This document shows positions 2,875-59,187 of a stretch of DNA of 64,000 nt, in pieces. The notes beneath the pieces were generated by a model that saw only the letters and a program-made list of their open reading frames with translations, did no database searches and was not told the origin of the DNA. The translations under genes and the position numbers were made by a program. Location: positions 68,669 through 132,668 of the forward strand of contig NZ_JADJNN010000008.1 in the NCBI RefSeq assembly GCF_016714285.1, in the 5' to 3' direction. The stretch comes from Nannocystis sp. (GTDB lineage Bacteria; Myxococcota_A; Polyangia; Nannocystales; Nannocystaceae). How positions within the stretch are numbered: the first letter of the stretch is position 1; each line of letters opens with the position of its first letter.

Positions 2875-4071
2875 TCAGTCCGCGAGCTCGAGCAGCAGCT
2901 GACGGCAGCGGAGGCGGCGGAGCTCGTCGGCCTCGGGGCGCTCGACGTACGCCGTGAGCAGCGCGCGGGCCTCGGCGTGGCGGGCCTTGTCGCCGGGGCC
3001 GGCGAGGGCGCTGCCGAGGTTGAACTGCAGCTCGGGCGGGAGGCGCTCGGGCGGGTCGCCGCGGTGCCAGTCGCGGGCGGCGGCGGCGAGGCGGTAGGCC
3101 TGCTCGGCGCCGGCGGGGTCGTGCAGGCGGGTGCGGGCGACGCCGAGGCCGAGGCCGGCGAGGTAGCGGTCGACGGCGGCGGGGGCCTCGAGGGCGGGGG
3201 CGTAGAGCTCGGCGGCCTTGCGGTCGTTGCCGGCGGCCAGCTCGGCGGCGGCCCAGCTGAGGCGCGGGGCGGGCTCGTCGGGGTCGAGGGTGAGGGCGAG
3301 GGCGAAGCGGCGGCGGGCCTCGCCGGGCTCGTGGGCGGCGAGCGAGACGCGGGCGCAGCTGGCGACGAACAGGGCGGCGCCGCGGGGGTCGCCGCCGTCG
3401 GCCGCGGGGTTGTCGTCGACGATGCGTTCGCGGCAGATCTGGGCGGCGAGGGCGAGGCGTTCGGGCTCGCGGTCGGCGAGGGCGAGGTCGTGGCGCAGGG
3501 CGACGGCGAGGGCGTAGGGGTCGTCGGGGGCGAGGGCGAGGGCGGCCTGGAATTCGCTGCGCGCGGCGTCGCGGTCGGCGGGCTCGGCCCGGGCCTCGAA
3601 GGCGGCGACGTGGAGGAGGGCGAGGCCGACGCGGGCGCTCGGGCCCTGGAGGAGCTCGCGGGCCTCGGGGACCAGACCCTCGGCGAGGGCCAGGGCGGCG
3701 AGCTCGTGGGCCCAGCGCGGGCGCGGGTCGCGTTGCAGCAGCTCGGCGTAGATCGCCAGGACGGCCCGCGCGGCGCCGCAGCGGCGCAGGACGGCGGCGC
3801 GGGCGAGGGCCTCGTCGGTGGTGGGCGGGATCGAGGTGTCGGCGCAGGGGTCGGGGGCGGGCGCGGGGACGACGGTGTCGGGGTGCGCGGGGCGGACCGC
3901 GGCGCCGGGGGCCTCGCGCTTGCAGGCGAGCAGGAGGCAGAGCGCGACTGTCCCGAGGGACAGGTTGCGAGCGGCTGGCTGGGCTGTCCGGAGGGACATG
4001 GTGGAAGAGACAGCTGCGGCTGGCCGGAGGAACATGGCGGAAAGGGCAGCTTGGGCTGGCCGGAGGGACAT
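2875..4071 (-). CDS. TPR-like repeat lipoprotein
   Basis: The signal peptide plus lipobox is LGTVALCLLLAC, followed by a helical Ala/Leu/Arg-rich TPR-like body. Three in-frame ATGs (3999, 4035, 4071) lie in a 36-bp x3 tandem repeat. The long N-terminal ORF extension to 5106 is an artefact overlapping cobA. Confidence 0.6.
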   Translation of the reverse strand: MSLRPAQAALSAMFLRPAAAVSSTMSLRTAQPAARNLSLGTVALCLLLACKREAPGAAVRPAHPDTVVPAPAPDPCADTSIPPTTDEALARAAVLRRCGAARAVLAIYAELLQRDPRPRWAHELAALALAEGLVPEARELLQGPSARVGLALLHVAAFEARAEPADRDAARSEFQAALALAPDDPYALAVALRHDLALADREPERLALAAQICRERIVDDNPAADGGDPRGAALFVASCARVSLAAHEPGEARRRFALALTLDPDEPAPRLSWAAAELAAGNDRKAAELYAPALEAPAAVDRYLAGLGLGVARTRLHDPAGAEQAYRLAAAARDWHRGDPPERLPPELQFNLGSALAGPGDKARHAEARALLTAYVERPEADELRRLRCRQLLLELAD

Positions 4072-4090
4072 GGCGGGAGGGCCAGGTTGG
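3980..4090. repeat. 36-bp tandem repeat x3, each copy carrying an in-frame ATG (encodes MSLRPAQAALSA / MFLRPAAAVSST / MSLRTAQPAARN)
   Basis: Direct inspection shows ATG codons (cat on the plus strand) at 3997, 4033 and 4069, spaced 36 bp apart. Each unit contains GGAGGGACATGG. Confidence 0.8.
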
Positions 4091-15981: not shown

Positions 15982-17418
15982 ATGCGCAAGATCGTGATCG
16001 CGAATGTCGCCCTTTCTGTGGTCCTCGGTGGTGCGGTCGGCTGTTCGTCGGCGGACGTCGGCCTCACCGAGACCGTCACCATCACGGCCTCCGGGGACAC
16101 CGGCCAGCAGGGCACCACCAGCGGTGACCCGGGGACCGGCGCCGCGGCGACGACGGACGGCCCGACGACCGCGCCGCCGACCACGAGCGCGTCCGGGACC
16201 GGCGAGACCACAGACATCCTCACGGGGGGGATCAGCGCGACCGACAGCGCGACCGACACCGCGACCACGACCATGAATGACCCGAATCAGACGAGCACGG
16301 GCGGGGAGACCAGCGGCACCACGGGGGTGGAGGCCGCCGATGGCGACGGCGACAAGATCCCGGACGACCAGGACAACTGCGTCGAGGTCGCGAACGAGGA
16401 TCAGCTGGACACTGACGGCGACGGTGTCGGCGACGCCTGCGACGACGACGACGACGACGACACGATCCCCGACCCGGACGACAACTGCCCGCTGGTGCCG
16501 AACGACAAGCAAGAGGACCTCGACAAGGACAAAATCGGCGACTTCTGCGACGACGACAAGGACGGGGACGGGATCCTCAACGGCGTCGACAACTGCCCGA
16601 TCACCCCCAACGCCGACCAGAAGGACCTCGACAAGGATCTCATCGGCGATGTCTGCGACGACGACAAGGACGGCGACGCCATCCCCAACGACGCCGACGT
16701 GTTCCCCGACGACGGCGGTCAGCCTGGCATCGTCATCCCCAAGAAGATCTACGCCCACTCGTCGAGCGCGCTGTCGACGGTCGACGTGGTCGACTACAGC
16801 GTGGTCGCCATCGGGCCGTTCCAGTGGCCGCTCGGCAACGACTCGATGACCGACATCGCGATCGACCGCTACGGCGTGCTGTACGGGGTCAGCTTCGGCC
16901 GCGCGTACGTGTGCAACCCGACCACCGCCAAGTGCTTCGACCTCGGCACGCTCAACAACAGCTACAACGGCCTGACCTGGATCCCGGCGGGGATCATCGA
17001 TCCCGACAACGACTCGCTGATCGGCATCGGCAACGACGGCAGCTGGAACCACCTGACCTTCGTGAACAAGGTCGTGACGGCCAAGAAGCTCGGCAGCTAC
17101 GGGCCGGGCTACACCTCGGCGGGCGACGCCTTCTCGATCGAGAACGTCGGCACCTACGCGGCGGTCAACAAGAACGGCGCCGCGGGCACGGTGATCGTGA
17201 CGGTCGACGCGCTGACCGGGAAGGCGACGAACGAGCTGGCGGTCACCCAGGGCTTCTTCGGAATCTACGGGCTCGCCGGCTGGGAGGGGCTGATCCTCGC
17301 GTTCGACTCGTCGGGCACGGTGATCAAGATCGATCCGATGACGAAGGTGGTCACCAACCTCGGCAAGAAGGCCCAGAGCTGGTGGGGCGCCGGGGTCGGC
17401 ACGATCCTGCCGCAGTAA
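15982..17418 (+). CDS. lipoprotein with thrombospondin type-3 (Ca-binding) repeats
   Basis: The lipobox is GGAVGCSS. There are five or more DxDxDGxxDxxDNC TSP3 repeats ([26 protein letters not shown]...) and a C-terminal beta-rich domain. Confidence 0.65.
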
Positions 17419-26651: not shown

Positions 26652-27962
26652 GTGAGGCGGTGGATCGCAGGGCTCTCGCTGGTGCTGGCGGCGCTGCTTC
26701 TGTGGTTGTGGTGGAGTGATGTGCCGGTGGGCAAGGCCGGTTCCGGCAAGCGCACCGGCCGGCGGTCGGCCGTGGCCGGCGGGTCGGCGAGCGGGTCGAT
26801 GGGGATCGGGAGCCGTGGTGAGGCGGATCGCAGCGGCGTTGGCCAGGTGCGGGGGCGGATCGTCGACAGCGACGGGATGCCGGTGACCGACGGGCGGGTG
26901 ATCCTTCATTGTCTGCCGAGGGGGGGGTCGCACAGCTTCCCGATCGACGCCGGGGTGGTCGAGGTCGGCGAGGAGGGGCAGTTCGTCGGGCCCGGTTGCC
27001 GGGGCCTGGTCTGCGCTGAATTCCGCCATACGCACCTGTTGCCGCGCGAGCCGTGGGTGTTCGAGCCGAATCAGAGCGAGCAGATGGTGACGGCGCGGCC
27101 GCTGGAGCGGATCGTCGGGACTGTGGTCGACGTGGAGGGACAGCCGGTGGCCGGGGCCCGCCTGATGGTCCGGCGCGGGAGCGACGACGACCCGACCGCG
27201 CTGCCGCCGTTTACGACCAGCACCACGACGAGCGACGCGGAGGGGGGCTTTGGCTTCGCCCGCGTCGAGCGGCCGCCCTGTGATCCCTGCGGGGAGGCCA
27301 GCGGGCGCTGTGAAGTCGGCGATGCGGCGGAGGTGCCGGCCTACAACGCGCTGGTGCTCGTGGCTCGCGCCCCCGGGTTTCGTAGCGTCGAGCGAGCCGT
27401 CGAGCTCGGGCAGGAGGACTGGCAGGTGACCCTGTTGCCGCCGTTGCCGGCGCTGCGGGGTACGGTACGGGATGCGGAGGGTCGGGCGTACCCGCGGGCG
27501 CGCGTGCTGGCGCGCTCGCATGTGCGCGGATACGAGGTGCACCAGGCGGTGGTGAAGGACGGGAGCTTCGCGCTGGCCGAGCTGGGGGAGGGGGGCTACG
27601 ACCTGCGGGTGCTCCAGGACGGGGTCACTCTGGCGACGGCGAACGAGGTGGACGCGGGGACCGAGGTGACGCTGGTCGGCGATCGTCCGGCAGAGGGACC
27701 GACCCTGGTAATTGAGGTTGTGCGGCGCGACGGCGGGGATGGGGTGGCCGGGGCGCTGGTCGATGGTGGGCCGTTTGCGGGCGCCCGCACGGACGCAGAC
27801 GGACGGGTGCAGGCGGAGGATGTGGCGCCGGGTCGCTATGCGCTGGTCATCCGGGCTCCTGGCTCGGGGACGCAGCGGCGCGAGATCGAGGTAGCGGCGG
27901 GAGCCGGCGAGGCGGGCGGAGCGATCGTCCACCGAGTCGACATCGTGTACGACGCGCCCTAG
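26652..27962 (+). CDS. membrane-anchored protein with carboxypeptidase-regulatory-like (CarbopepD_reg/Cna-B-like) beta-sandwich repeats
   Basis: A GTG start lies 14 nt after the phosphohexomutase stop. The protein has an N-terminal TM (IAGLSLVLAALLLWLWW) and repeats of the type GRIVDSDGMPVTDGRV, GTVVDVEGQPVAGARL, GTVRDAEGRAYPRARV and DADGRVQAEDVAPGRYALVI. Confidence 0.55.
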   Translation: MRRWIAGLSLVLAALLLWLWWSDVPVGKAGSGKRTGRRSAVAGGSASGSMGIGSRGEADRSGVGQVRGRIVDSDGMPVTDGRVILHCLPRGGSHSFPIDAGVVEVGEEGQFVGPGCRGLVCAEFRHTHLLPREPWVFEPNQSEQMVTARPLERIVGTVVDVEGQPVAGARLMVRRGSDDDPTALPPFTTSTTTSDAEGGFGFARVERPPCDPCGEASGRCEVGDAAEVPAYNALVLVARAPGFRSVERAVELGQEDWQVTLLPPLPALRGTVRDAEGRAYPRARVLARSHVRGYEVHQAVVKDGSFALAELGEGGYDLRVLQDGVTLATANEVDAGTEVTLVGDRPAEGPTLVIEVVRRDGGDGVAGALVDGGPFAGARTDADGRVQAEDVAPGRYALVIRAPGSGTQRREIEVAAGAGEAGGAIVHRVDIVYDAP

Positions 27963-28090
27963 GCGTGCGCGACGAGGACGATCGTCCGGGTCGACATCGT
28001 GTACGACGCGCCCTAGGCGTGCGCGACGAGGACGATCGTCCGGGTCGACATCGTGTACAACGCGCCCTAGGCGTGCGCGACGAGGCAGCG
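27936..28090. repeat. 54-bp tandem repeat x~2.8 spanning the stop of the CarbopepD-like gene and the start of the kinase gene; each copy contains ...GTGTACGACGCGCCCTAGGCGTGCGC (stop TAG, then 2 nt, then GTG)
   Basis: gtcgacatcgtgtac recurs with a 54-bp period (about 27936, 27990, 28044). The third copy diverges after cgacgagg. Confidence 0.8.
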
Positions 28091-31000
28091 ACCCATCATG
28101 ACGAGTTCCCGCGGGGCTTCGGGAAGTTCGTACTGCTCCGCGAGATGGCCCGCGGGGGGATGGGCGCGCTGTACCTCGCGGCGGCTGGCGAGCATGGCGG
28201 GCTCGAGAAGCTGTGCGTGGTCAAGACCTTGCTCGCCGACGCCGATGCTGATGAGGACGGCGCGCTCGGTCGCCGCTTCTTCGATGAGGCTCGTGTGGTC
28301 GTGCGCCTGAATCACGCCAACCTCGTACAGGTGTTCGATGTCGGGGCCGTGGAGGGTCAGCTCTACCTGGCGATGGAGCTGGTGGACGGGAAGGACCTGC
28401 GGGCGGTGTGGAACCGCTGCGCACAGCTGCAGCGGCGGATCCCGGTCGACATCGCGGTGTTCGTGGTCCGCGAGCTGCTCCGCGGGCTGGCGTATGTGCA
28501 CGACGCGATGGGGCTCGGCTTGGTCCATCGTGACATCTCACCGCCGAACATCCTGGTCGGCTACCGCGGCGAGGTGAAGCTGACGGACTTCGGTCTGGCG
28601 AAGAGCGTGCTGCGCTCGGAGATCACGAGCCCGGGGCGGGTGCTCGGCCGCTTCAACTACCTCTCGCCGGAGCAGGCCCGGGGTCAGGCGGTCGACCGGC
28701 GCACCGACATTTATGCGGCGGGGATCGTGCTCTGGGAATTACTCACGGGGCGGCAGTTGTTCTCCGCGAGCGTGGCGAGCCACGGCGCGACGCTCGCGGC
28801 CGCCCGTGACCCGTTCGTGCGGGCGCCCTCGGAGCTGGTCCCTGAGATACCGGATGGCCTCGACTCGATCGTGTTGCGGGCCCTCGGGACCGAGCGAGAG
28901 CAGCGCTATCAGACGGCGGACCGCTTCCGTGCGAGCCTTTCGGAGATCCTCGCGCGAAATTATCCGAGCTGTGATACGGACCGGATTGGCGGGTTTATGC
29001 GCGACATCTTCGCGCGAGACCACAAATTTGAGACTCACGACTACGCGAGCTACGTTCGCGAAGATTTCTCCAGGGTCCGGGAGCAAGGTCGGGGGCAGGA
29101 TGCCGTCAGCCTTTCGGACTCCATGGACATCCCACGCCGGGGCCGACGGGCAGCAAGCGAGAGCAGGATGGCGGATATCGAGGAAATGGGCCTTCTCAGC
29201 GGCCACACAGCGAAGCCCACGGCGTCGACCCGGGAGGAGGCAGAACAGCGCTGGGGTACCGTCGTCGCCGGTCGTTACCGGGTCGAGGACCTGCAGGTCT
29301 TCGACGGCATGGGCGCGCTGTATCGGGCCCGCGACACCGAGCGTGGGGTTCCGTGTGCGCTGCGCGTGCTGCCGGAGATCTATGCCCGCGAACCGGAGGT
29401 GATGGCCCGCTTCATGGCCGACGCCCAGGCGGCGCAGGAGCTCAAGCACCCGAACATCGCGCAGGTGTTCGACATCGGCAAGCTCGACGACGGGGCCGTG
29501 TACGCGGTGACCGAGCTGCTCGATGGCCAGAGCCTGGCGACGATCATCCAGGAGGAAGGTCGCATCTCGCCAGGGCGGGCCGTCCACGTGGCCAGCCAGG
29601 TGTGCCGCGCGCTGGGCACGGCGCACGAGTCGGGGATCATCCACCGCGACTTCAAGCCCAGCAACATCGTGCTGGTGGCGCAGGAGGGCGACCTCGACTT
29701 CGTGAAGGTCGTCGACTTCGGCATCTGCTCGCACGTCGACAGCGAGCCGTCGACGACCACCTCACAGCAGGAGTTGATCATCGGCTCGCCCGATTACATG
29801 GCCCCCGAGCAGGCCGCTGGCGCCGAGGCCAACCCGGCGTGTGACATCTACGCGCTCGGGGCGGTGCTGTTCGAGACGCTGAGCGGGCGTCTGCCGTACA
29901 AGGGGCGCAACGCGATCGACGTGCTGATCCAGAAGGGTGCACGCGACGCGCCCCGGGTCACGGATGTGGCGCCGGACGTGCCCGAGGGGCTCGCCGACGT
30001 GATCGCGGCCTGCCTGTCGCGGCGACCCGAGGAGCGGCCGTCGTCGATGCGGGTGCTCGAGGTTGAGCTGCTGCGGGCGCTCGACAGCAAGGCGCCGCGA
30101 CCGGTGAAGAGCGCCGTCGCGGCGGCGCTGGCTGGCGCCGGGGTGCCCCGTTTGGACACGTCGGAGCGATCGGCGAACCTGCCGTTACCGCCTCCGCCGG
30201 AGAGCGCGTCGAGCTCGTCGATGCGGGCGCCGGTCAGCAACGAGGCGTCGGCCTCGGGGCCACGCACGGGCCCGGCGAGCGGCCCCAGCGGGCTGACGCC
30301 GGTGACGGCGATGCGAGAGGAGCGTCGGGAGCCATCGTCAGTGCAGCGGCCGCCTGAGCCGCTGGTCGAGCGACCGACCCAGCAGGACGTCGTCGAGCCG
30401 GTGCAGCAGAGCTCGAACGGTTGGTTGTGGCTGGTGGCCGGCGGCACGCTGATCATCGCGGCGGTGCTGCTGTACCCGCAGCTGTTCGGCGGCGGTCCGG
30501 TGCCGCCAAAGCCCGACGCCAAGGGTGGCGAGGTCGTGGTGAAGACCAGCGCCGATGTGGCCGAGCCCGATGAGCCCGACACGGTCGAGCCGGAGCCGCC
30601 GGTCCCACCACCGGCACCGACGCACGACCCGATGGTGATCGTGACCCGCGCCGAGCTCGCGCTGGGGGAGGGCCGGCTGACTGCGCCGGCGGGCAACAAC
30701 CTCTCGGAGTACCTGCAGCAGCTGGCCACGCTCGACGCGGGCAACGAGGCGATCGCTCGCCTTCGCGGCAAGGCGGTCGAGGGCCTGCTGGCGAAGGGCA
30801 GCAAGGAGCTGGCCGACAAGCACGCGCACGAGGCCGCGGCCTTCCTGCGCGAGCTGTTCGTGCTGGCCCCGGACAACAAGGACGCGATCGCACCGTTCAC
30901 GGAGGCCGTGCTCACCGAGAGCAGGATCTTGCGCCACATGAAGGCGTGGGACGAGATCCTGCCGCTGATCGAGGAGGTCACGAAGGTTAACCCCAAGAGC

Positions 31001-31156
31001 TTCGACGCGCAGATGCTCCGCGGGCAGACGCTCGCGGGCCTCGGTCGCTGGACCGACGCCGTCGAGGCCTACAAGGCCGCGACCGCGCTGCGCAAGAAGG
31101 ACAAGCCCGCCAAGGCGGCGCTCGCCGAGGCGAAGAAGAAGGCGGCGGGAAAGTAG
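27965..31156 (+). CDS. membrane Ser/Thr protein kinase with two tandem kinase domains, one TM and a C-terminal extracytoplasmic TPR-like domain
   Basis: Domain 1 has GMGALYLA, VVKTL, HRDISPPN, DFGLAK and SPEQ. Domain 2 has GMGALYRA, ALRVL (Arg in place of the beta3 Lys), HRDFKPSN, DFGIC and APEQ. The TM is WLWLVAGGTLIIAAVLLY. The start could be the GTG in any of the three repeat copies (27965, 28019, 28073). Confidence 0.75.
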   Translation: MRDEDDRPGRHRVRRALGVRDEDDRPGRHRVQRALGVRDEAATHHDEFPRGFGKFVLLREMARGGMGALYLAAAGEHGGLEKLCVVKTLLADADADEDGALGRRFFDEARVVVRLNHANLVQVFDVGAVEGQLYLAMELVDGKDLRAVWNRCAQLQRRIPVDIAVFVVRELLRGLAYVHDAMGLGLVHRDISPPNILVGYRGEVKLTDFGLAKSVLRSEITSPGRVLGRFNYLSPEQARGQAVDRRTDIYAAGIVLWELLTGRQLFSASVASHGATLAAARDPFVRAPSELVPEIPDGLDSIVLRALGTEREQRYQTADRFRASLSEILARNYPSCDTDRIGGFMRDIFARDHKFETHDYASYVREDFSRVREQGRGQDAVSLSDSMDIPRRGRRAASESRMADIEEMGLLSGHTAKPTASTREEAEQRWGTVVAGRYRVEDLQVFDGMGALYRARDTERGVPCALRVLPEIYAREPEVMARFMADAQAAQELKHPNIAQVFDIGKLDDGAVYAVTELLDGQSLATIIQEEGRISPGRAVHVASQVCRALGTAHESGIIHRDFKPSNIVLVAQEGDLDFVKVVDFGICSHVDSEPSTTTSQQELIIGSPDYMAPEQAAGAEANPACDIYALGAVLFETLSGRLPYKGRNAIDVLIQKGARDAPRVTDVAPDVPEGLADVIAACLSRRPEERPSSMRVLEVELLRALDSKAPRPVKSAVAAALAGAGVPRLDTSERSANLPLPPPPESASSSSMRAPVSNEASASGPRTGPASGPSGLTPVTAMREERREPSSVQRPPEPLVERPTQQDVVEPVQQSSNGWLWLVAGGTLIIAAVLLYPQLFGGGPVPPKPDAKGGEVVVKTSADVAEPDEPDTVEPEPPVPPPAPTHDPMVIVTRAELALGEGRLTAPAGNNLSEYLQQLATLDAGNEAIARLRGKAVEGLLAKGSKELADKHAHEAAAFLRELFVLAPDNKDAIAPFTEAVLTESRILRHMKAWDEILPLIEEVTKVNPKSFDAQMLRGQTLAGLGRWTDAVEAYKAATALRKKDKPAKAALAEAKKKAAGK

Positions 31157-33542: not shown

Positions 33543-35126
33543 TCACGGCAGCAGGCCTTTCCGGAGCTGAGTGGCGAGGTCGATGGCGAGGTCGGAGTAG
33601 AAGAAGAAGGCGATGGTCGCGGCGGCGGTGCAGCACAGCGCGAGGACCATCGGCCAGGGCGCCTCGCCGTGCTCACCGTGGTGGCCGTGGGCGTGGCTGT
33701 GGTCGTCCTCGTCGCCGAACAGGCCGTCGGTCGAGCTGGCGTGGCGGCCCGGGTTGGCGGCGCGGGGCGAGGGGCGGAAGAAGGCGCGGTAGATGATCGG
33801 GAGGAAGTAGCCGGCGTTGAGCAGGGTGCTGAGGATGATGACGCCGACGACGAAGGCGTACTCGGTCTCCCAGGCGGCGGTCAGCAGGTACCACTTGCTG
33901 ATGAAGCCGGCGGTCGGCGGGAGGCCGATCATCGACAGGGCGCCGATCGTGAAGGCGCCCATGGTGAAGGGCATGCGCCGGCCGATGCCGTCGAGCTGGC
34001 TGACCTCGGTCTTGTGGGCGGCGGTGTAGATCGAGCCGGCGGCGAAGAACAGGGTGATCTTGCCGAAGGCGTGGGCGGCGATGTGGAGGGCGGCCGCCAT
34101 GATCGAGATCGGCGACAGCAGGGCCGCGGCGATGATGACGTAGGACAGCTGGCTGACCGTCGAGTAGGCGAGGCGGCGCTTGAGGTTGTCCTGGAACAGG
34201 GCGATGAAGGAGGCGATCAGGATGGTCGCGCCGGCGACGTAGATGAGCCAGCTGCCCTGGTGGTACTTGATGAGCGTGAGCGGGCCGAAGGTGTAGACGA
34301 TCACCTTGACGACGGTGAAGACGCCGGCCTTGACGACGGCGACCGCGTGGAGCAGGGCGCTGACCGGCGTCGGCGCGACCATGGCGGCGGGCAGCCAGCG
34401 GTGCATCGGCATCAGCGCGGCCTTGCCGATGCCGTACATGTAGAGGAGGAACAGGGTGCCGAGGACGGGCGCCGAGAGCTCGCCGGAGGCCAGGGCCTTG
34501 GTGAACACGCCGCCTGGCTTGAAGGACAGGTCGTGGGTGTAGGCGTAGGTGGCGATGATGCCGGCGAGGAGGAAGCAGACGGAGGTGACGACGAGGATGC
34601 CGAGGTAGGTCCGGGCCGAGCGCAGCGCCTCCGCGGTGCCCTTGTGGGCGACCAGCGGGTAGGTAGTGAGGGTCAGCATCTCGTAGAAGACGAACAGGGT
34701 GAACAGGTTGCCGGCGAAGGCGAGGCCCATCACGCTGCTGATGGCGAGGGCGAAGCAGACGTAGAAGCGGGTCTGGTGCCGCTCCTGGTTGCCGCGCATG
34801 TAGCCGATCGAGTAGAGCGAGTTGAGGATCCACAGGGCGCTGGCGATGAGCGCGAAGATCATGCCGAGGGGCTCGACCTTGAGCTCGAGGAAGACGTTGG
34901 GGACGACCTCGATGAGGCGCAGCGGCGGGGCCTTGGCGTAGCCGGCCCAGAAGTCGGGGGCGAGCACGCGGGGGACGATGCCGATGACCGTGTAGAACAG
35001 GGCCGCGGCGGTGCCGAGGGTGATGCCCTCGCGGAGGTTCGCCCAGCGGCCGGCGAGGGCGATGAGGAGGGCGCCGATCAGCGGGATGTAGATGGCCAGC
35101 AGCGGCGGGGAGAGGTCGAAGGTCAC
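33543..35126 (-). CDS. antiporter-like subunit (PF00361; NuoL/MrpA-like) with a His-rich C-terminal segment
   Basis: The GTG start overlaps the upstream stop (GTGA). Conserved regions include WLPAAMVAPTPVSALLHAVAVVKAG and AYSTVSQLSYV. The C-terminal part is ...DEDDHSHAHGHHGEHGE.... Confidence 0.75.
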   Translation of the reverse strand: MTFDLSPPLLAIYIPLIGALLIALAGRWANLREGITLGTAAALFYTVIGIVPRVLAPDFWAGYAKAPPLRLIEVVPNVFLELKVEPLGMIFALIASALWILNSLYSIGYMRGNQERHQTRFYVCFALAISSVMGLAFAGNLFTLFVFYEMLTLTTYPLVAHKGTAEALRSARTYLGILVVTSVCFLLAGIIATYAYTHDLSFKPGGVFTKALASGELSAPVLGTLFLLYMYGIGKAALMPMHRWLPAAMVAPTPVSALLHAVAVVKAGVFTVVKVIVYTFGPLTLIKYHQGSWLIYVAGATILIASFIALFQDNLKRRLAYSTVSQLSYVIIAAALLSPISIMAAALHIAAHAFGKITLFFAAGSIYTAAHKTEVSQLDGIGRRMPFTMGAFTIGALSMIGLPPTAGFISKWYLLTAAWETEYAFVVGVIILSTLLNAGYFLPIIYRAFFRPSPRAANPGRHASSTDGLFGDEDDHSHAHGHHGEHGEAPWPMVLALCCTAAATIAFFFYSDLAIDLATQLRKGLLP

Positions 35127-35245
35127 GGGGCACCTCCGAGCAGCGAGCGGGCGGCGGTCAGGGGGATGTAGATCGCCAGCAGCGGCGGGGAGAGGTCGAA
35201 GGTCACGGGGCACCTCCGAGCAGCGAGCGGGCGGCGGTCAGGGCG
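35081..35245. repeat. 80-bp tandem duplication x2 spanning the mrpD-like stop and the downstream GTG start (each copy encodes ...LTAARSLLGGAP* overlapping VTFDLSPPLLAIYI)
   Basis: Near-identical 80-bp units at 35081-35160 and 35161-35240, with 3-4 mismatches. Confidence 0.8.
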
Positions 35246-36714
35246 ATGTGGCCGGTGAAGGTGGCGTTGATGCCGAAGTAGATGCTGGCGCCGATCAGGG
35301 TCCACATCGGGATGAGCATCATCAGCGGGGCCTCCTCGACCGGCGGGGTGCCGGGGTCGGGCTCCTGGAAGTAGGCGGCCTCGACGACGCGCCAGGTGTA
35401 GACGACGGCGAGCAGCGAGCCGATGAGGACGACGGCGGCGAGCGGCCAGCCGCCGGGGCGCTCGAGGCAGCCCTGGACCAGGTACCACTTGCTGATGAAG
35501 CCGGCGGTGAGCGGGAAGCCGATCAGGCCGAGGCCGCCGACGGTGAAGGCGGCGAGGGTCAGCGGCATCTGTTTGCCGAGGCCGCGCACGCTGCGGATGT
35601 CGCAGCGGCCGGTGCGGTAGACGACGGCGCCGAGGGCCATAAACATGCCGCCCTTCATGACGGCGTGGTTGAAGATGTGGGCGACCGAGCCGGCGATGCC
35701 GTGGAGGTTGGCGAGGGCGAAGCCGAGGACGATGTAGCCGAGCTGGCCGACGCTCGAGTAGGCCAGCATGCGCTTGAGGTTGGTCTGGCGGATCGCGGTG
35801 ACGCCGGTGACGAGGATGCCGGCCGAGGCGCACAGCAGCAGGACCAGGCCGCTCGGCATCATGCCGAAGCTGAAGCCGACGCCGAAGATGGTGAAGAGGA
35901 AGCGGAAGGCCATGTACACGCCGACCTTGGTGGCGGTGGCGGCGAGCAGCGCGGACACGGCCGAGGGGGCGTAGGTGTAGGCCCGCGGCAGCCACATGTG
36001 CAGCGGGAACATGGCCATCTTCATGCCGAGGCCGGCGAGCAGGAAGGCGAAGGCGACCAGGACGGTGCGGCTCTCGAGGATGCCCGGCACGCTCATGAGG
36101 CGGTCGTGCATGTCCTGCATGTTGAGCGTGCCGGTGATCATCATCAGGTAGCCGATGCCCAGCAGGATGAAGCTGGCGCCGACGCTGCCGAGGATGAGGT
36201 ACCGGAGGCTGGCCGTGAGCGCGCCGCGGTGCATGTCCTTGCCCATGGCGATCAGGGCGTAGACGGTGAGCGACGAGATCTCGAGGAGGACGTAGACGTT
36301 GAAGGCGTCGCCGGTGACGGTGATGCCGAGCAGGCCGGTGATGGCGAGGACCCAGACGGCGTAGAAGAAGTTGACGCGGTCGGCCGGTATCTCCTTCTCC
36401 ACGCTGAGCTTGGCGTAGATGGTGGTGATGAAGCCGACGCCGCCGACGATGAGGAGGATGAAGGCGTTGAGGGCGTCGACGCGGTACTCGATGCCCCACT
36501 GGCGCGGCCAGTTGCCGAGCTCGTAGCTGACCATGCCGGTCTTGCTGGCGAGCACCTGCATCATCAGGCGGATGGTGAAGTAGAAGACGGTGCCGGTGAG
36601 GAAGGTGGCCCAGGCCCAGGGCTTCCAGCCGCGGCCGGTGGCGATCGTCAGGATGCCGCCGATGAGCGGGACGGTGACGATGAGGACGGGGAGGTGGGCT
36701 TGCACGTCAACCAT
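35203..36714 (-). CDS. mrpD: MrpD/NuoN-like antiporter subunit (PF00361), 503 aa
   Basis: Contains WLPRAYTYAPSAVSALLAATATKVGVY and AYSSVGQLGYIV. It overlaps mrpC by 8 nt. Confidence 0.8.
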   Translation of the reverse strand: MVDVQAHLPVLIVTVPLIGGILTIATGRGWKPWAWATFLTGTVFYFTIRLMMQVLASKTGMVSYELGNWPRQWGIEYRVDALNAFILLIVGGVGFITTIYAKLSVEKEIPADRVNFFYAVWVLAITGLLGITVTGDAFNVYVLLEISSLTVYALIAMGKDMHRGALTASLRYLILGSVGASFILLGIGYLMMITGTLNMQDMHDRLMSVPGILESRTVLVAFAFLLAGLGMKMAMFPLHMWLPRAYTYAPSAVSALLAATATKVGVYMAFRFLFTIFGVGFSFGMMPSGLVLLLCASAGILVTGVTAIRQTNLKRMLAYSSVGQLGYIVLGFALANLHGIAGSVAHIFNHAVMKGGMFMALGAVVYRTGRCDIRSVRGLGKQMPLTLAAFTVGGLGLIGFPLTAGFISKWYLVQGCLERPGGWPLAAVVLIGSLLAVVYTWRVVEAAYFQEPDPGTPPVEEAPLMMLIPMWTLIGASIYFGINATFTGHIALTAARSLLGGAP

Positions 36715-54891: not shown

Positions 54892-55053
54892 CGGCCGCGA
54901 CTGTACCGCAAGTCGGGCGATCCGCGGGGGCCGGTGCGGCGGCGCAGCAGGGCAAGTCGGGCGATCCGCGGAGGCCGACGCGGCGCAGCATGGCAAGTCG
55001 GGCGCTCTGCGGAGGCCGACGCGGCGCAGCAGGGCCTCGCGCAAGTCAGGCGA

Positions 55054-57462
55054 TCAGCGGAGGCCGGCGCGGCGGCGCAGCAGGGCCTCGCCGCCGAGGC
55101 CGATCAGCGCGAGCAGGAGGGCCCAGGGGCCGTCCCACAGCGGCACGCTGCGGCGGCTGTCGATGCGCAGGCCGGGGCCCTCGTCGCCGAGCTCGGCGAG
55201 CGGCAAGGAGCTCGGCAGGGCGTCGCCGTCGCGGGCGCGGAGGAAGCGGCCGCCGGTGGCCTCGGCGAGGGCCTGGAGGCGCTGTTCGCCGGGGTCGGCG
55301 TCGACGCGGGCGAGCTCGTGGCCGGGCTCGTCGACCAGGAAGACGCGGCGGGCGCGGGCCGGCGGCGGGCCGTCGACCTGTCCCGAAGGACCTGTCCTCC
55401 AGGCCATGGCCTCGTAGGCGCCGACGGGGAGGCGGCCGGGCAAGGTGTCGCTGGCGCGGCCGAGGGCGTCGGTGGTCCATGTCCCTTCGGACAGGAGGAA
55501 GGTGGGCGGGCCGGGGCTGTTGTTGTTCGCCGGTGCGGGTTCGACGGCGCCGAGCGGGCGGACCTCCCAGGCGAGCGGGACGGCGGGCTCGGGGGCGTAG
55601 CTGGGGGTGAGGGCGGTGGCTCGCAGGGTGACTGGTTGGCCGCGGAGGTAGCTCGGGCGGTCGGTCTCGAGGCTGAGGCGCTCGGCGGCCGCGTCGCGCA
55701 GCAGCCAGCGGACGGCGCCGAGCCACAGGAGGTCGTAGGGGCGGGCGCCGTCGACGAGCGGGAGGTCGGCGGCGAAGCCGAGGCGCCAGGTGGCGCCGGT
55801 GGCGAGGACGAGGCTGCGGCCCTTGCCGGGCTCGGCGATCGCGAGCAGGGGGGCGCCGCCCTGGGCGGTGAGCAGCACGGCGCTGGCGATGCTGGCGGCG
55901 TGGGGCGCGAGCTGGACGGGGTTGTAGCTGTCGAAGGCGGGGAGGGTCGACCAGTCGGGCGGGAGGGCGGCGAGCCAGGCGGTGATCGGGTGGCGTCGGC
56001 CGGCGTCGCTGAGGGCGGGGCGGTAGCTGTCGGTGAGGGTGCCGGTGGGGCGGCGGGTGTCGACGGGGAGGGTCGTGGCGAGCACGCCGGGGTAGTCGCC
56101 GGTGGCGAGGCCCATGTCGCCGCCGATGACGACGAGGGCGCCGCCCTCCTGCACGTAGCTGGCGATGTCGCCGAGGTAGACGCCGACCTGATGGTTGATC
56201 GCGTCGAAGTTGTGGAGGATGACGAGGTCGAAGGAGCCGAGCTGCTCCTTGAAGAGCTCGTCGGTGGGGAAGGCGATCAGGCTGAGCTCGGCGGAGGGGT
56301 CGTCGCGGTCGGCGTCCTCGACGCTGCGCAGGATGTAGTAGCTGAGCAGCTCGACGTTGGGGTCGCGGCCGAGCAGGGTCCGGAGCGCGCGCACGTCCCA
56401 GTCGGGGCGGCCGGCGACGTGGAGCACGCGGACCTTGTCGCGCAGGACCTTGACGACGAAGGCGCGGCGGTTGTTGGCGAGGGTGGCCTCGCCGGGGAGC
56501 GGGCGGACGGCGATCTCGTGGACGAACTGGCCGACGCGGTCGGGGGCGACCTCGAAGCGCACGGGGACCGGGACGCCGTCGGCGGCGAGGGTGACGCGGG
56601 TGCTCGCGACGAGGGCGCCGTCGCGGCGCAGGTCGACGTCGACGGGCGTGTCGGCGAGGCCGTGGGCGATCAGGTCGGCGCTGAACTCGGTGACGTTCTC
56701 GACGAAGGCGAACTCGCCGGCGTGGAGCTCGGCGACGGCGACGTCGCGGATCGCGGGGGCGCCGGCGCTGACGGTGGTGATCGGGACGCCGAGGGCGCGG
56801 GCGGCCAGGAGCAGCGGGTCCTGGGCGGGCTGGCCGTAGGTACCTGTCCCTTCGAACAGGCCGTCGGAGAGCACGAGGACGGCGGCGAGCGGGCGGGGGT
56901 CGTCGGTGGCGAGGCCGGGCTCGCCGGCGTCCGGGGCCTGGGCGAGCTCGGCGAGGGCGCGGGCGAGGTCGGAGGCGGGGCCGTCGACGGGGACCTTGAG
57001 CTCGTCGGCGTCGGTCTCGGCGATCGGGCGGCTGCGATCGGCGAAGCTGCGCAGGCCGGGGGACAGGCCCTGCTCGCGCCAGGCGGCGCGGGCCGGGGCG
57101 CCGGCGGACCAGAAGCTGCGCAGGCGATCGATGCGCGGGGTGGTCTTGGCGCCGGGGCGCTCGGCGTCGGCGAGGGCCATGCTGGCGCTGGCGTCGACGA
57201 GCACGGCGACGCGCGGACCGACCGGACGCACGGTCTCCCGGGCGAGGGTGAGCTCGAGGCCGACGGTGAGCAGGGCCAGCAGGCCGAGCATGCGCAGGGT
57301 GAACAGGCCGAGGCGGGTGCGGCGGGGCAGCGCGGGCCGGCCGGGGCCGGCGCCGCGGAGCGCGAGCGCGGCCTCGACGACGGCAATGGCGAGGCACACG
57401 ACCAGGAGGGTCAGGGCCAGCGGGTCCGGCACGTGGCCCGCGACGAGGCGCCAGCGCTCCAT
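55054..57462 (-). CDS. BatA-like membrane protein: N-terminal double-TM anchor, vWA-like domain (DxSxS) and a large C-terminal region
   Basis: The TM pair is LALTLLVVCLAIAVV... / ...LGLLALLTVGL. The MIDAS-like motif is VAVLVDASASM. Such proteins are typically encoded with DUF4159 and MoxR-type genes, and a DUF4159 gene is indeed upstream. Confidence 0.6.
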   Translation of the reverse strand: MERWRLVAGHVPDPLALTLLVVCLAIAVVEAALALRGAGPGRPALPRRTRLGLFTLRMLGLLALLTVGLELTLARETVRPVGPRVAVLVDASASMALADAERPGAKTTPRIDRLRSFWSAGAPARAAWREQGLSPGLRSFADRSRPIAETDADELKVPVDGPASDLARALAELAQAPDAGEPGLATDDPRPLAAVLVLSDGLFEGTGTYGQPAQDPLLLAARALGVPITTVSAGAPAIRDVAVAELHAGEFAFVENVTEFSADLIAHGLADTPVDVDLRRDGALVASTRVTLAADGVPVPVRFEVAPDRVGQFVHEIAVRPLPGEATLANNRRAFVVKVLRDKVRVLHVAGRPDWDVRALRTLLGRDPNVELLSYYILRSVEDADRDDPSAELSLIAFPTDELFKEQLGSFDLVILHNFDAINHQVGVYLGDIASYVQEGGALVVIGGDMGLATGDYPGVLATTLPVDTRRPTGTLTDSYRPALSDAGRRHPITAWLAALPPDWSTLPAFDSYNPVQLAPHAASIASAVLLTAQGGAPLLAIAEPGKGRSLVLATGATWRLGFAADLPLVDGARPYDLLWLGAVRWLLRDAAAERLSLETDRPSYLRGQPVTLRATALTPSYAPEPAVPLAWEVRPLGAVEPAPANNNSPGPPTFLLSEGTWTTDALGRASDTLPGRLPVGAYEAMAWRTGPSGQVDGPPPARARRVFLVDEPGHELARVDADPGEQRLQALAEATGGRFLRARDGDALPSSLPLAELGDEGPGLRIDSRRSVPLWDGPWALLLALIGLGGEALLRRRAGLR

Positions 57463-57482
57463 GCTAGCGGCGCAGCTCCGGG

Positions 57483-57640
57483 GTGGGGCGGGGCAGGACC
57501 TGGCTCTCGAGGCAGGTTCGGCTGGCCTCTGGGACAGGGCGCGTGGGACAGGTGGGGCGGGGCAGGACCTGGCTCTCGAGGCAGGTTCGGCTGGCCTCTG
57601 GGACAGGGCGTGTGGGACAGGTGGGGCGGGGCATGGTCAG
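57483..57640. repeat. 69-bp tandem repeat x2.1 in an intergenic region, rich in GGGACAGG motifs
   Basis: ggggcggggcaggacctggctctcgaggcaggttcggctggcctctgggacagggcg[ct]gtgggacaggt occurs twice, followed by a partial third copy. Confidence 0.8.
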
Positions 57641-59070: not shown

Positions 59071-59187
59071 TTGAGGACAGGTGCTTCGGGACAGGTTACG
59101 GGGCTGTCCTGGAGGACAGGTGCTTCGGGACAGATTGCGAGGCTGGCCTGGAGGACAGGTGCTTCGGGACAGAGGCCCGCGCCCTCG
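59071..59187. repeat. 39-bp tandem repeat x3 (ctggaggacaggtgcttcgggacag...) in a convergent intergenic region
   Basis: gaggacaggtgcttcgggacag occurs at about 59073, 59112 and 59151. Confidence 0.8.

Follow-up and report, generated by a model that had tools for sequence, protein, structure and literature searches.

Tandem triplication of a stop/start junction between a carboxypeptidase-regulatory-like gene and a kinase gene in a Nannocystis lineage

The 64-kb stretch of DNA analysed here (64,000 nucleotides of contig NZ_JADJNN010000008.1, termed the window) comes from a metagenome-assembled genome (MAG) of Nannocystis sp. and contains, at 27921-28085, a 54-bp tandem array that spans the stop/start junction of two co-directional genes. 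The upstream gene (26682-27962, + strand) lies in an open reading frame (ORF) that is open from 26574 and, as annotated, encodes a 426-residue protein with a carboxypeptidase-regulatory-like domain (CarboxypepD_reg, PF13620, E 3.8e-27). This protein is identical in the window assembly and in the MAG of a second strain, GCA_016717175.1, referred to below as the sister MAG. The downstream gene (28073-31156, + strand, in an ORF open from 27965) encodes a Ser/Thr kinase that comprises two Pkinase stretches, a hydrophobic stretch and C-terminal TPR sequences. The hydrophobic stretch, WLWLVAGGTLIIAAVLLYPQLF, is a putative transmembrane segment, as read by eye. The kinase is 100% identical to WP_293272321.1 / MBK7826593.1 from a Nannocystis sp. 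MAG, which is annotated as a protein of 1027 residues that starts MRDEAATHH. These domain matches agree with the labels, a CarbopepD-like gene upstream and a dual kinase downstream, that had been given in an initial annotation made from the sequence of this DNA.

The repeat that the initial annotation placed at 27936-28090 (54 bp in 2.8 copies) is real, although its coordinates were a few bases off. Tandem Repeats Finder reports a 54-bp period at 27932-28085 with 2.9 copies, 98% matches, 0 indels and a score of 294. The homology between copies reaches left beyond this call to 27921 (GCGATCGTCC), with a 3-nt indel, and the copy borders used here (27921-28085) are set in a biological register that takes in both the leftward homology and the indel. 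When up to three mismatches to the full 54-bp unit are allowed, the array is its sole occurrence in the window, compared with an expectation of 0.00 occurrences derived from 100 shuffles of the window. Read directly from the sequence, each copy contains TAG, GC and GTG in succession, and the claim that the unit contains the upstream stop together with the downstream GTG start is thus borne out in all three copies. The TAG stops are located at 27960, 28014 and 28068, while the GTG codons, at 27965, 28019 and 28073, all lie in one open frame. The N-terminus of the kinase gains 36, 18 or 0 residues from the first, second or third GTG, respectively, as the initial annotation had also stated for its three alternative starts. 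The preceding stop in the kinase frame is at 27713, and there is no other start codon between 27713 and 27965. A G to A change at 28059 gives the second unit the translation ...RVQRALGV in place of RVRRALGV.

All three copies are on the + strand. Copy 1 (27921-27977, 57 nt) holds the working C-terminus of the upstream gene (...AIVHRVDIVYDAP), the TAG at 27960-27962, the GC dinucleotide and the first in-frame GTG at 27965. Copy 2 (27978-28031, 54 nt) is a hybrid that contains an out-of-use TAG at 28014 and the second in-frame GTG at 28019. In copy 3 (28032-28085, 54 nt) the TAG at 28068 is followed by the GTG at 28073, which is the annotated and homology-supported start of the kinase. A perfect 12-nt palindrome, GGACGATCGTCC, is found at the join between copies 1 and 2 (27976-27987), where it forms the core of an imperfect 24-nt palindrome (27970-27993), and again at the join between copies 2 and 3 (28030-28041, with the 24-nt version at 28024-28047). 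The RNA hairpin of the 24-nt palindrome has a folding energy of -10.8 kcal/mol. The 12-nt palindrome occurs in none of the single-copy relatives described below. The ancestral flank at the position of the join reads GGAGCGATCGTCC or GGGGCGATCGTCC, a quasi-palindrome that is one base off GGACGATCGTCC, and it may be that the duplication was accompanied by a template-switch correction.

The distribution of the array was established by comparison with the sister MAG and with more distant relatives. Over 8,085 bp, contig JADKFZ010000004.1 of the sister MAG is 99.62% identical to the window and contains the same three copies, with the same differences between them; 32 alignment columns differ, none of which lies between 27723 and 28555. 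The comparison within the lineage thus covers two genomes, the window assembly and the sister MAG. Among 105 fetched loci, the join sequence specific to the duplication was present in the sister-MAG locus alone. By contrast, a single-copy junction, in every case TAG-2nt-GTG, separates the same gene pair in 22 contigs from relatives at 82-96% nucleotide identity. These include a closest set of four assemblies with 93.5-96% nucleotide identity (L102-L105), one relative at about 92% (L099), thirteen at 83-88% (L081-L093), and four JGI/ENA metagenome contigs at 76-88% across the aligned segments (L094-L097). The four metagenome contigs, all of them single copy, were obtained in a scan of metagenomes for the conserved junction pattern. 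In all 22 contigs the junction reads ...GACATCGTGTACAACGCGCCnTAGGnGTGC..., and the kinase starts at the GTG two bases past the TAG. On this distribution of copy number, the expansion postdates the split from the 94-96% lineage and predates that between the two MAG strains. The initial annotation had regarded a single copy in orthologues and reads as evidence against its proposals; the orthologues are indeed single copy (22 of 22 contigs), yet the array recurs in an independent assembly. The array is therefore a genuine, lineage-specific and apparently fixed expansion.

Distant orthologues with approximately 50% amino acid identity (L002-L004), which were the best matches among species representatives, also keep the gene pair, with an intergenic spacer of 80-130 nt. 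In these loci a conserved GGTAT[G/C]AT-N9-GTG is found before the kinase start (L002 3925-3946, L003 1814-1835 and L004 3922-3943), which resembles a -10 box positioned such that the mRNA would be leaderless or nearly so. The junction of the Nannocystis clade, GTGTACAACGCGCCCTAGGCGTG, aligns by eye with this motif, and on the basis of this alignment the upstream ORF in the Nannocystis clade seems to have been extended across a former promoter or spacer.

The differences between the three copies provide insights into how the array expanded. Copy 1 reads GCGATCGTCCACCGAGTCGAC, while copies 2 and 3 read ACGATCGTCC and GGGTCGAC on either side of a 3-nt gap; the CAC codon kept by copy 1 has been removed by a deletion common to the other two. 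At the TAC[G/A]AC site a G is present in copies 1 (27951) and 2 (28005), while copy 3 keeps the ancestral A (28059, TACAAC) that is found in all relatives. When compared with the single-copy relatives copy 1 displays two derived states, G at 27951 and A at 27935. Copy 2 is a mosaic, its 5' part being as in copy 3 and its 3' part as in copy 1. As the indel is common to copies 2 and 3, and the G to copies 1 and 2, at least two expansion steps are required. In the simplest history the native junction would initially have been duplicated, both copies would then have diverged, and an unequal exchange would have yielded the hybrid middle copy, a mutational mechanism and an order of events that we infer. 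Slipped-strand mispairing or unequal crossing-over is the most likely origin of the array. In an attempt to reconstruct the original breakpoints, no single microhomology-mediated event was able to reproduce the join. From the mosaic divergence of the copies it also follows that the array was already in place when the two MAG strains diverged.

The codon usage of the 36-residue extension is markedly different from that of established genes in the window. When read in frame with the kinase, the 35 additional codons show a G+C content at third positions (GC3) of 0.49, with a codon adaptation index (CAI) of 0.24. The reference set consisted of five genes in the window, four of which are Pfam-supported, with a total of 2,964 codons and an overall GC3 of 0.94. 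The extension lies below every one of the 560 reference windows of 35 codons, where the minimum GC3 was 0.66 and the minimum CAI 0.35. Its codons include CTA, which is used in 0 of the 2,964 reference codons, in addition to GTA, CGA and CAT. The same DNA read in the frame of the upstream gene has a GC3 of 1.0. The extension is thus an out-of-frame image of the 3' end of the upstream gene, as a young by-product would be, although it may still be translated. In a search of 5.8 billion proteins the extension was covered by 0 of the 120 listed matches. The kinase start is at the third-GTG position in the NCBI annotation and in all relatives, and the longest-ORF start at 27965, which defines a 1063-residue ORF, is probably wrong as an annotation of the kinase.

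The sequence that precedes the kinase start is unusually well conserved. Across ten relatives, no other 30-nt window in 1 kb is as conserved as the 30 nt before the GTG, where the mean identity is 0.963 and 25 of 30 positions are invariant. This block corresponds to 28043-28072 in the window and to positions -30 to -1 in L081-L102, and its invariance includes third codon positions. The pattern suggests that the last 30 nt of the upstream gene may be under constraint beyond that imposed by the C-terminal peptide DIVYNAP. The full conserved block is present in every copy of the array, such that the contexts of the three GTG codons differ at one base only, position -14. The junction displays no clear Shine-Dalgarno sequence.

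The expansion has placed 110 nt between the native start (28073) and the stop at which the upstream gene ends (27960). Ribosomes can reinitiate after termination only where genes overlap or are separated by a very short spacer, and a spacer of approximately 20 nt nearly abolishes the process (PMC10666635). If the TAG-GC-GTG junction supports reinitiation, ribosomes stopping at 27960 would restart only at 27965; the resulting kinase would be longer by a charged stretch of 36 residues, and initiation at the annotated start, 110 nt away, would have to occur independently. Should the kinase start instead be recognized on its own, all three GTG codons would see some use. N-terminally extended isoforms of the kinase are therefore best viewed as a plausible prediction, in which the upstream GTG codons would be used to some degree. 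Folding of 27900-28130 was not unusual (z-score -1.04). The energies required to open the region from -12 to +15 around the three GTG codons were 15-25 kcal/mol, depending on flank length, and overlap both mutually and with those of five relatives (14-23 kcal/mol); accessibility thus singles out no start. A scan of 27300-28400 for sigma-70 promoters and intrinsic terminators found nothing, and an Rfam search of 27000-29000 (E<=1) returned only a chance microRNA match with an E value of 0.43.

The 54-bp array is not the only duplicated stop/start junction in the window. At 35069-35249 on the - strand, an 80-bp repeat (2.3 copies, 95% matches) covers the GTGA at which the stop and start codons of two Mrp/Mnh subunit-D-like genes (Proton_antipo_M) overlap. 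Copy 1 of this repeat supplies the upstream TGA (35205-35203), while the last copy (copy 2) supplies the native GTG (35126), which is preceded by a GGAGGTG Shine-Dalgarno sequence. The two cases therefore share a layout in which the first copy provides the upstream stop and the last copy the native downstream start. As 80 is not a multiple of 3, the duplication has created a mini-ORF instead of an in-frame extension: the first GTG opens a chimeric mini-ORF of 27 codons, VTFDLSPPLLAIYIPLTAARSLLGGAP, whose start overlaps the upstream stop and whose TGA overlaps the native GTG. Both the 99.6%-identical sister MAG (L101) and a relative at 94% (L100) have one copy of the 80-bp junction. The duplication either took place very recently or may be an artefact confined to one assembly. 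In the single-copy state a 16/19 direct repeat, ATCsCCCTGAyCGsCGCCC, is present at both ends of the unit, 80 nt apart. Direct repeats that flank the ends of a unit are a classical substrate for slippage. As the 54-bp array and the 80-bp repeat both span stop/start junctions, junction duplications recur in this lineage. The view that the 54-bp array marks a slippage-prone coupling site, put forward in the initial annotation, receives indirect support from this second duplicated junction, which is absent from the sister MAG. In the sister-MAG locus (L101 3001-4827) the GenBank call for an antiporter subunit is 608 residues long and overlaps the upstream gene by 247 nt, while the RefSeq protein has 527 residues. 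The 608-residue call is a start miscall of the longest-ORF kind, and the same risk applies to the 1063-residue ORF at 27965.

The repeats described to date that are closest to the array in position and geometry are the mycobacterial interspersed repetitive unit-variable number tandem repeats (MIRU-VNTR). These are operon-intergenic repeats of tens of bp, exemplified by senX3-regX3, with reading frames coupled to the gene at whose start codon the MIRU sits (PMC12548453). The resemblance is that co-directional genes flank tandem units of tens of bp whose reading frames have stop and start codons abutting those of the genes themselves, such that translation can be relayed (PMC12548453). The closest mimic of a MIRU is the 80-bp repeat, whose 27-codon mini-ORF overlaps the upstream stop and the downstream start. 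The repeats described here, however, are outside this family. MIRUs are dispersed, apparently mobile and present at many loci, whereas here each unit copies the local junction and there is no other 54-bp copy in 64 kb. The 54-bp array is also without a separate mini-ORF, its unit instead extending the downstream protein in frame. In contrast to a VNTR, three copies are present in both of the two strains compared, while it is the 80-bp array that differs between those strains. Apart from MIRUs, a literature search revealed no previously described class of duplications that span gene junctions.

In mode of origin the array corresponds to ordinary tandem duplications, with which it shares head-to-tail copies, a single copy in relatives, restriction to one lineage and a mosaic middle copy; in the 80-bp case the 16/19 direct repeat at the ends of the ancestral unit is a further likeness. 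What differs is that the unit straddles a stop/start junction, such that both genes are intact while the start codons and the pre-start block are multiplied. The array adds a further example to a known class of events, tandem duplication. With respect to coupled gene pairs, a class to which this pair may belong, TAG-GC-GTG is conserved in the 22 contigs from relatives at a spacing where coupling is efficient (PMC10666635). The distant orthologues, however, have spacers of 80-130 nt, and the native start in the window is 110 nt from the stop in use. The array also shares with contingency loci the location of a repeat at the 5' end of a gene and the potential for changes in copy number. Contingency loci typically consist of 1-9-nt units in long runs, act through frameshifts or promoter spacing and are highly variable between close strains. 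The unit of the array is by contrast 54 nt (18 codons), in frame, present in three copies and identical in both strains.

The likely explanation of these data is a triplication of the native junction, specific to the lineage and apparently fixed, that arose through slippage or unequal crossing-over and is tolerated, with no function or nearly none. The upstream gene still ends, within copy 1, at its normal C-terminus, while the kinase keeps from the last copy its native start together with the complete conserved pre-start block. The array persists because neither gene is damaged, hence the near-neutrality that we infer. A duplication inside a gene inserts residues or causes a frameshift, while one that straddles a junction would spare both genes, and in a gene-dense genome such duplications would be among the few likely to survive. 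Several observations weigh against this explanation. Selection for an in-frame product would likewise account for a period that is a multiple of 3 and for the open extension frame, although such a period has about a one-in-three chance. The perfect 12-nt palindrome, formed twice, is not predicted by a purely neutral account, its chance being estimated at approximately 1 in 64 given the pre-existing CGATCG core. The boundaries of the 54-bp unit are inconsistent with a clean microhomology-mediated event, as its flanks have only GAG or AGCGA in common and the join needs additional changes of 1-3 nt. Finally, only about 0.55 substitutions are expected in 154 bp at the divergence of the sister MAG, and the identity of the arrays thus says little, while the same copy number in just two genomes is weak evidence of stability.

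The main alternative to a tolerated duplication is an adaptive remodelling of expression, through uncoupling of the kinase from the upstream gene, a palindromic hairpin or protein-binding element, or a new property of the extended kinase. Here the period is again pertinent, as it is in frame, and the palindrome with its -10.8 kcal/mol hairpin is positioned just past the first and second GTG, 54 nt apart, and not past the third. Furthermore, the A at -14, invariant in all relatives, survives only in copy 3, and the codon deleted from the other two copies only in copy 1. This apparent division of labour, however, amounts to one site and one indel, the opening energies of the start regions overlap mutually and with those of relatives, and there are no promoter, terminator or Rfam matches in the regions scanned. 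The 80-bp repeat, moreover, is out of frame and thus reveals no consistent design. An adaptive role is, on balance, unlikely. Less probable again is the phase- or length-variable N-terminus proposed in the initial annotation, in which frequent slippage would vary the N-terminus of the kinase or its coupling to the upstream gene. Three in-frame GTG codons share an identical upstream context (save at -14), and the difference at the 80-bp junction repeat between 99.6%-identical MAGs indicates that such sites change on short time scales. These features are outweighed by the equal copy number and internal differences of the 54-bp array in both strains, by the diverged, mosaic copies that make it older than the strain split, and by the inability of an in-frame 54-nt unit to switch the gene on or off. 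In addition, the extension has the codon usage of non-coding, out-of-frame sequence, the start is annotated at the third GTG, and just three copies of a long unit are unlike known contingency loci.

Two further explanations are highly improbable. An artefact of assembly or polishing might be suspected as the source is a MAG and as the 80-bp repeat at 35069-35249 is present in one assembly only. Two assemblies with 32 differing columns over 8 kb, and with different states of the 80-bp repeat, nevertheless contain an identical 54-bp array, and the site-specific differences between its copies are not the product of collapse or stutter. If a mobile, MIRU-like member of a dispersed repeat family had inserted at the start codon of the kinase, this would account for the position between co-directional genes, the stop and start codons at the ends of the unit and its size of 50-80 bp (PMC12548453). 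The whole unit, however, is native junction sequence of the single-copy relatives, there is no further copy in the 64-kb window and, among the 105 fetched loci, only the sister MAG has the array.

The window contains several other repeats. Those at 57482-57633 (69 bp, 2.2 copies, 98% matches) and 59073-59173 (39 bp, 2.6 copies, 93%) share GGGACAG / GGACAGG motifs and are apparently intergenic, as judged by their position relative to the listed ORFs. The repeat at 57482-57633 is located between two co-directional ORFs on the minus strand and touches neither a stop nor a start. The sequence TGGGACAGG, with up to one mismatch, occurs 32 times in the window compared with 18.8 expected, and no shuffle reached 32. 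A 108-bp repeat at 16427-16698 (2.5 copies, 77% matches), rich in GAC and AAC codons, looks like in-frame, aspartate-rich protein repeats of the calcium-binding type rather than a recent duplication. Further repeats of medium period are located at 54908-55091 (41 bp, 4.0 copies, 76% matches) and 3978-4076 (36 bp, 2.8 copies, 84%).

For annotation, the lesson of this locus is that the array should not be taken as a regulatory switch. The window contains two junction duplications in 64 kb, one apparently fixed and the other polymorphic between near-identical strains, which suggests that a genome-wide census would be worthwhile. A broader reading, in which duplication across junctions is a recurrent route of boundary evolution in these high-GC myxobacteria, the kinase is mostly made with its charged 36-residue tail and the copies divide their labour, is doubtful. 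If it were true, the whole initiation region would be multiplied with the neighbouring genes unharmed, giving rise to in-frame extensions (54 bp) or to self-derived relay mini-ORFs (80 bp) by which ribosomes would be handed on to the following gene, the latter being a home-grown analogue of MIRUs. Under a division of labour copy 1 would serve the C-terminus of the upstream protein and copy 3 the start of the kinase. The locus also offers a natural test of reinitiation at a +2-nt junction that is without a Shine-Dalgarno sequence; if such reinitiation does occur, the first GTG would be the one in use. It provides a dated natural example of a tandem duplication across a stop/start junction in which neither gene was damaged, and illustrates that a junction-spanning event can make N-terminal extensions or relay mini-ORFs from pre-existing sequence.

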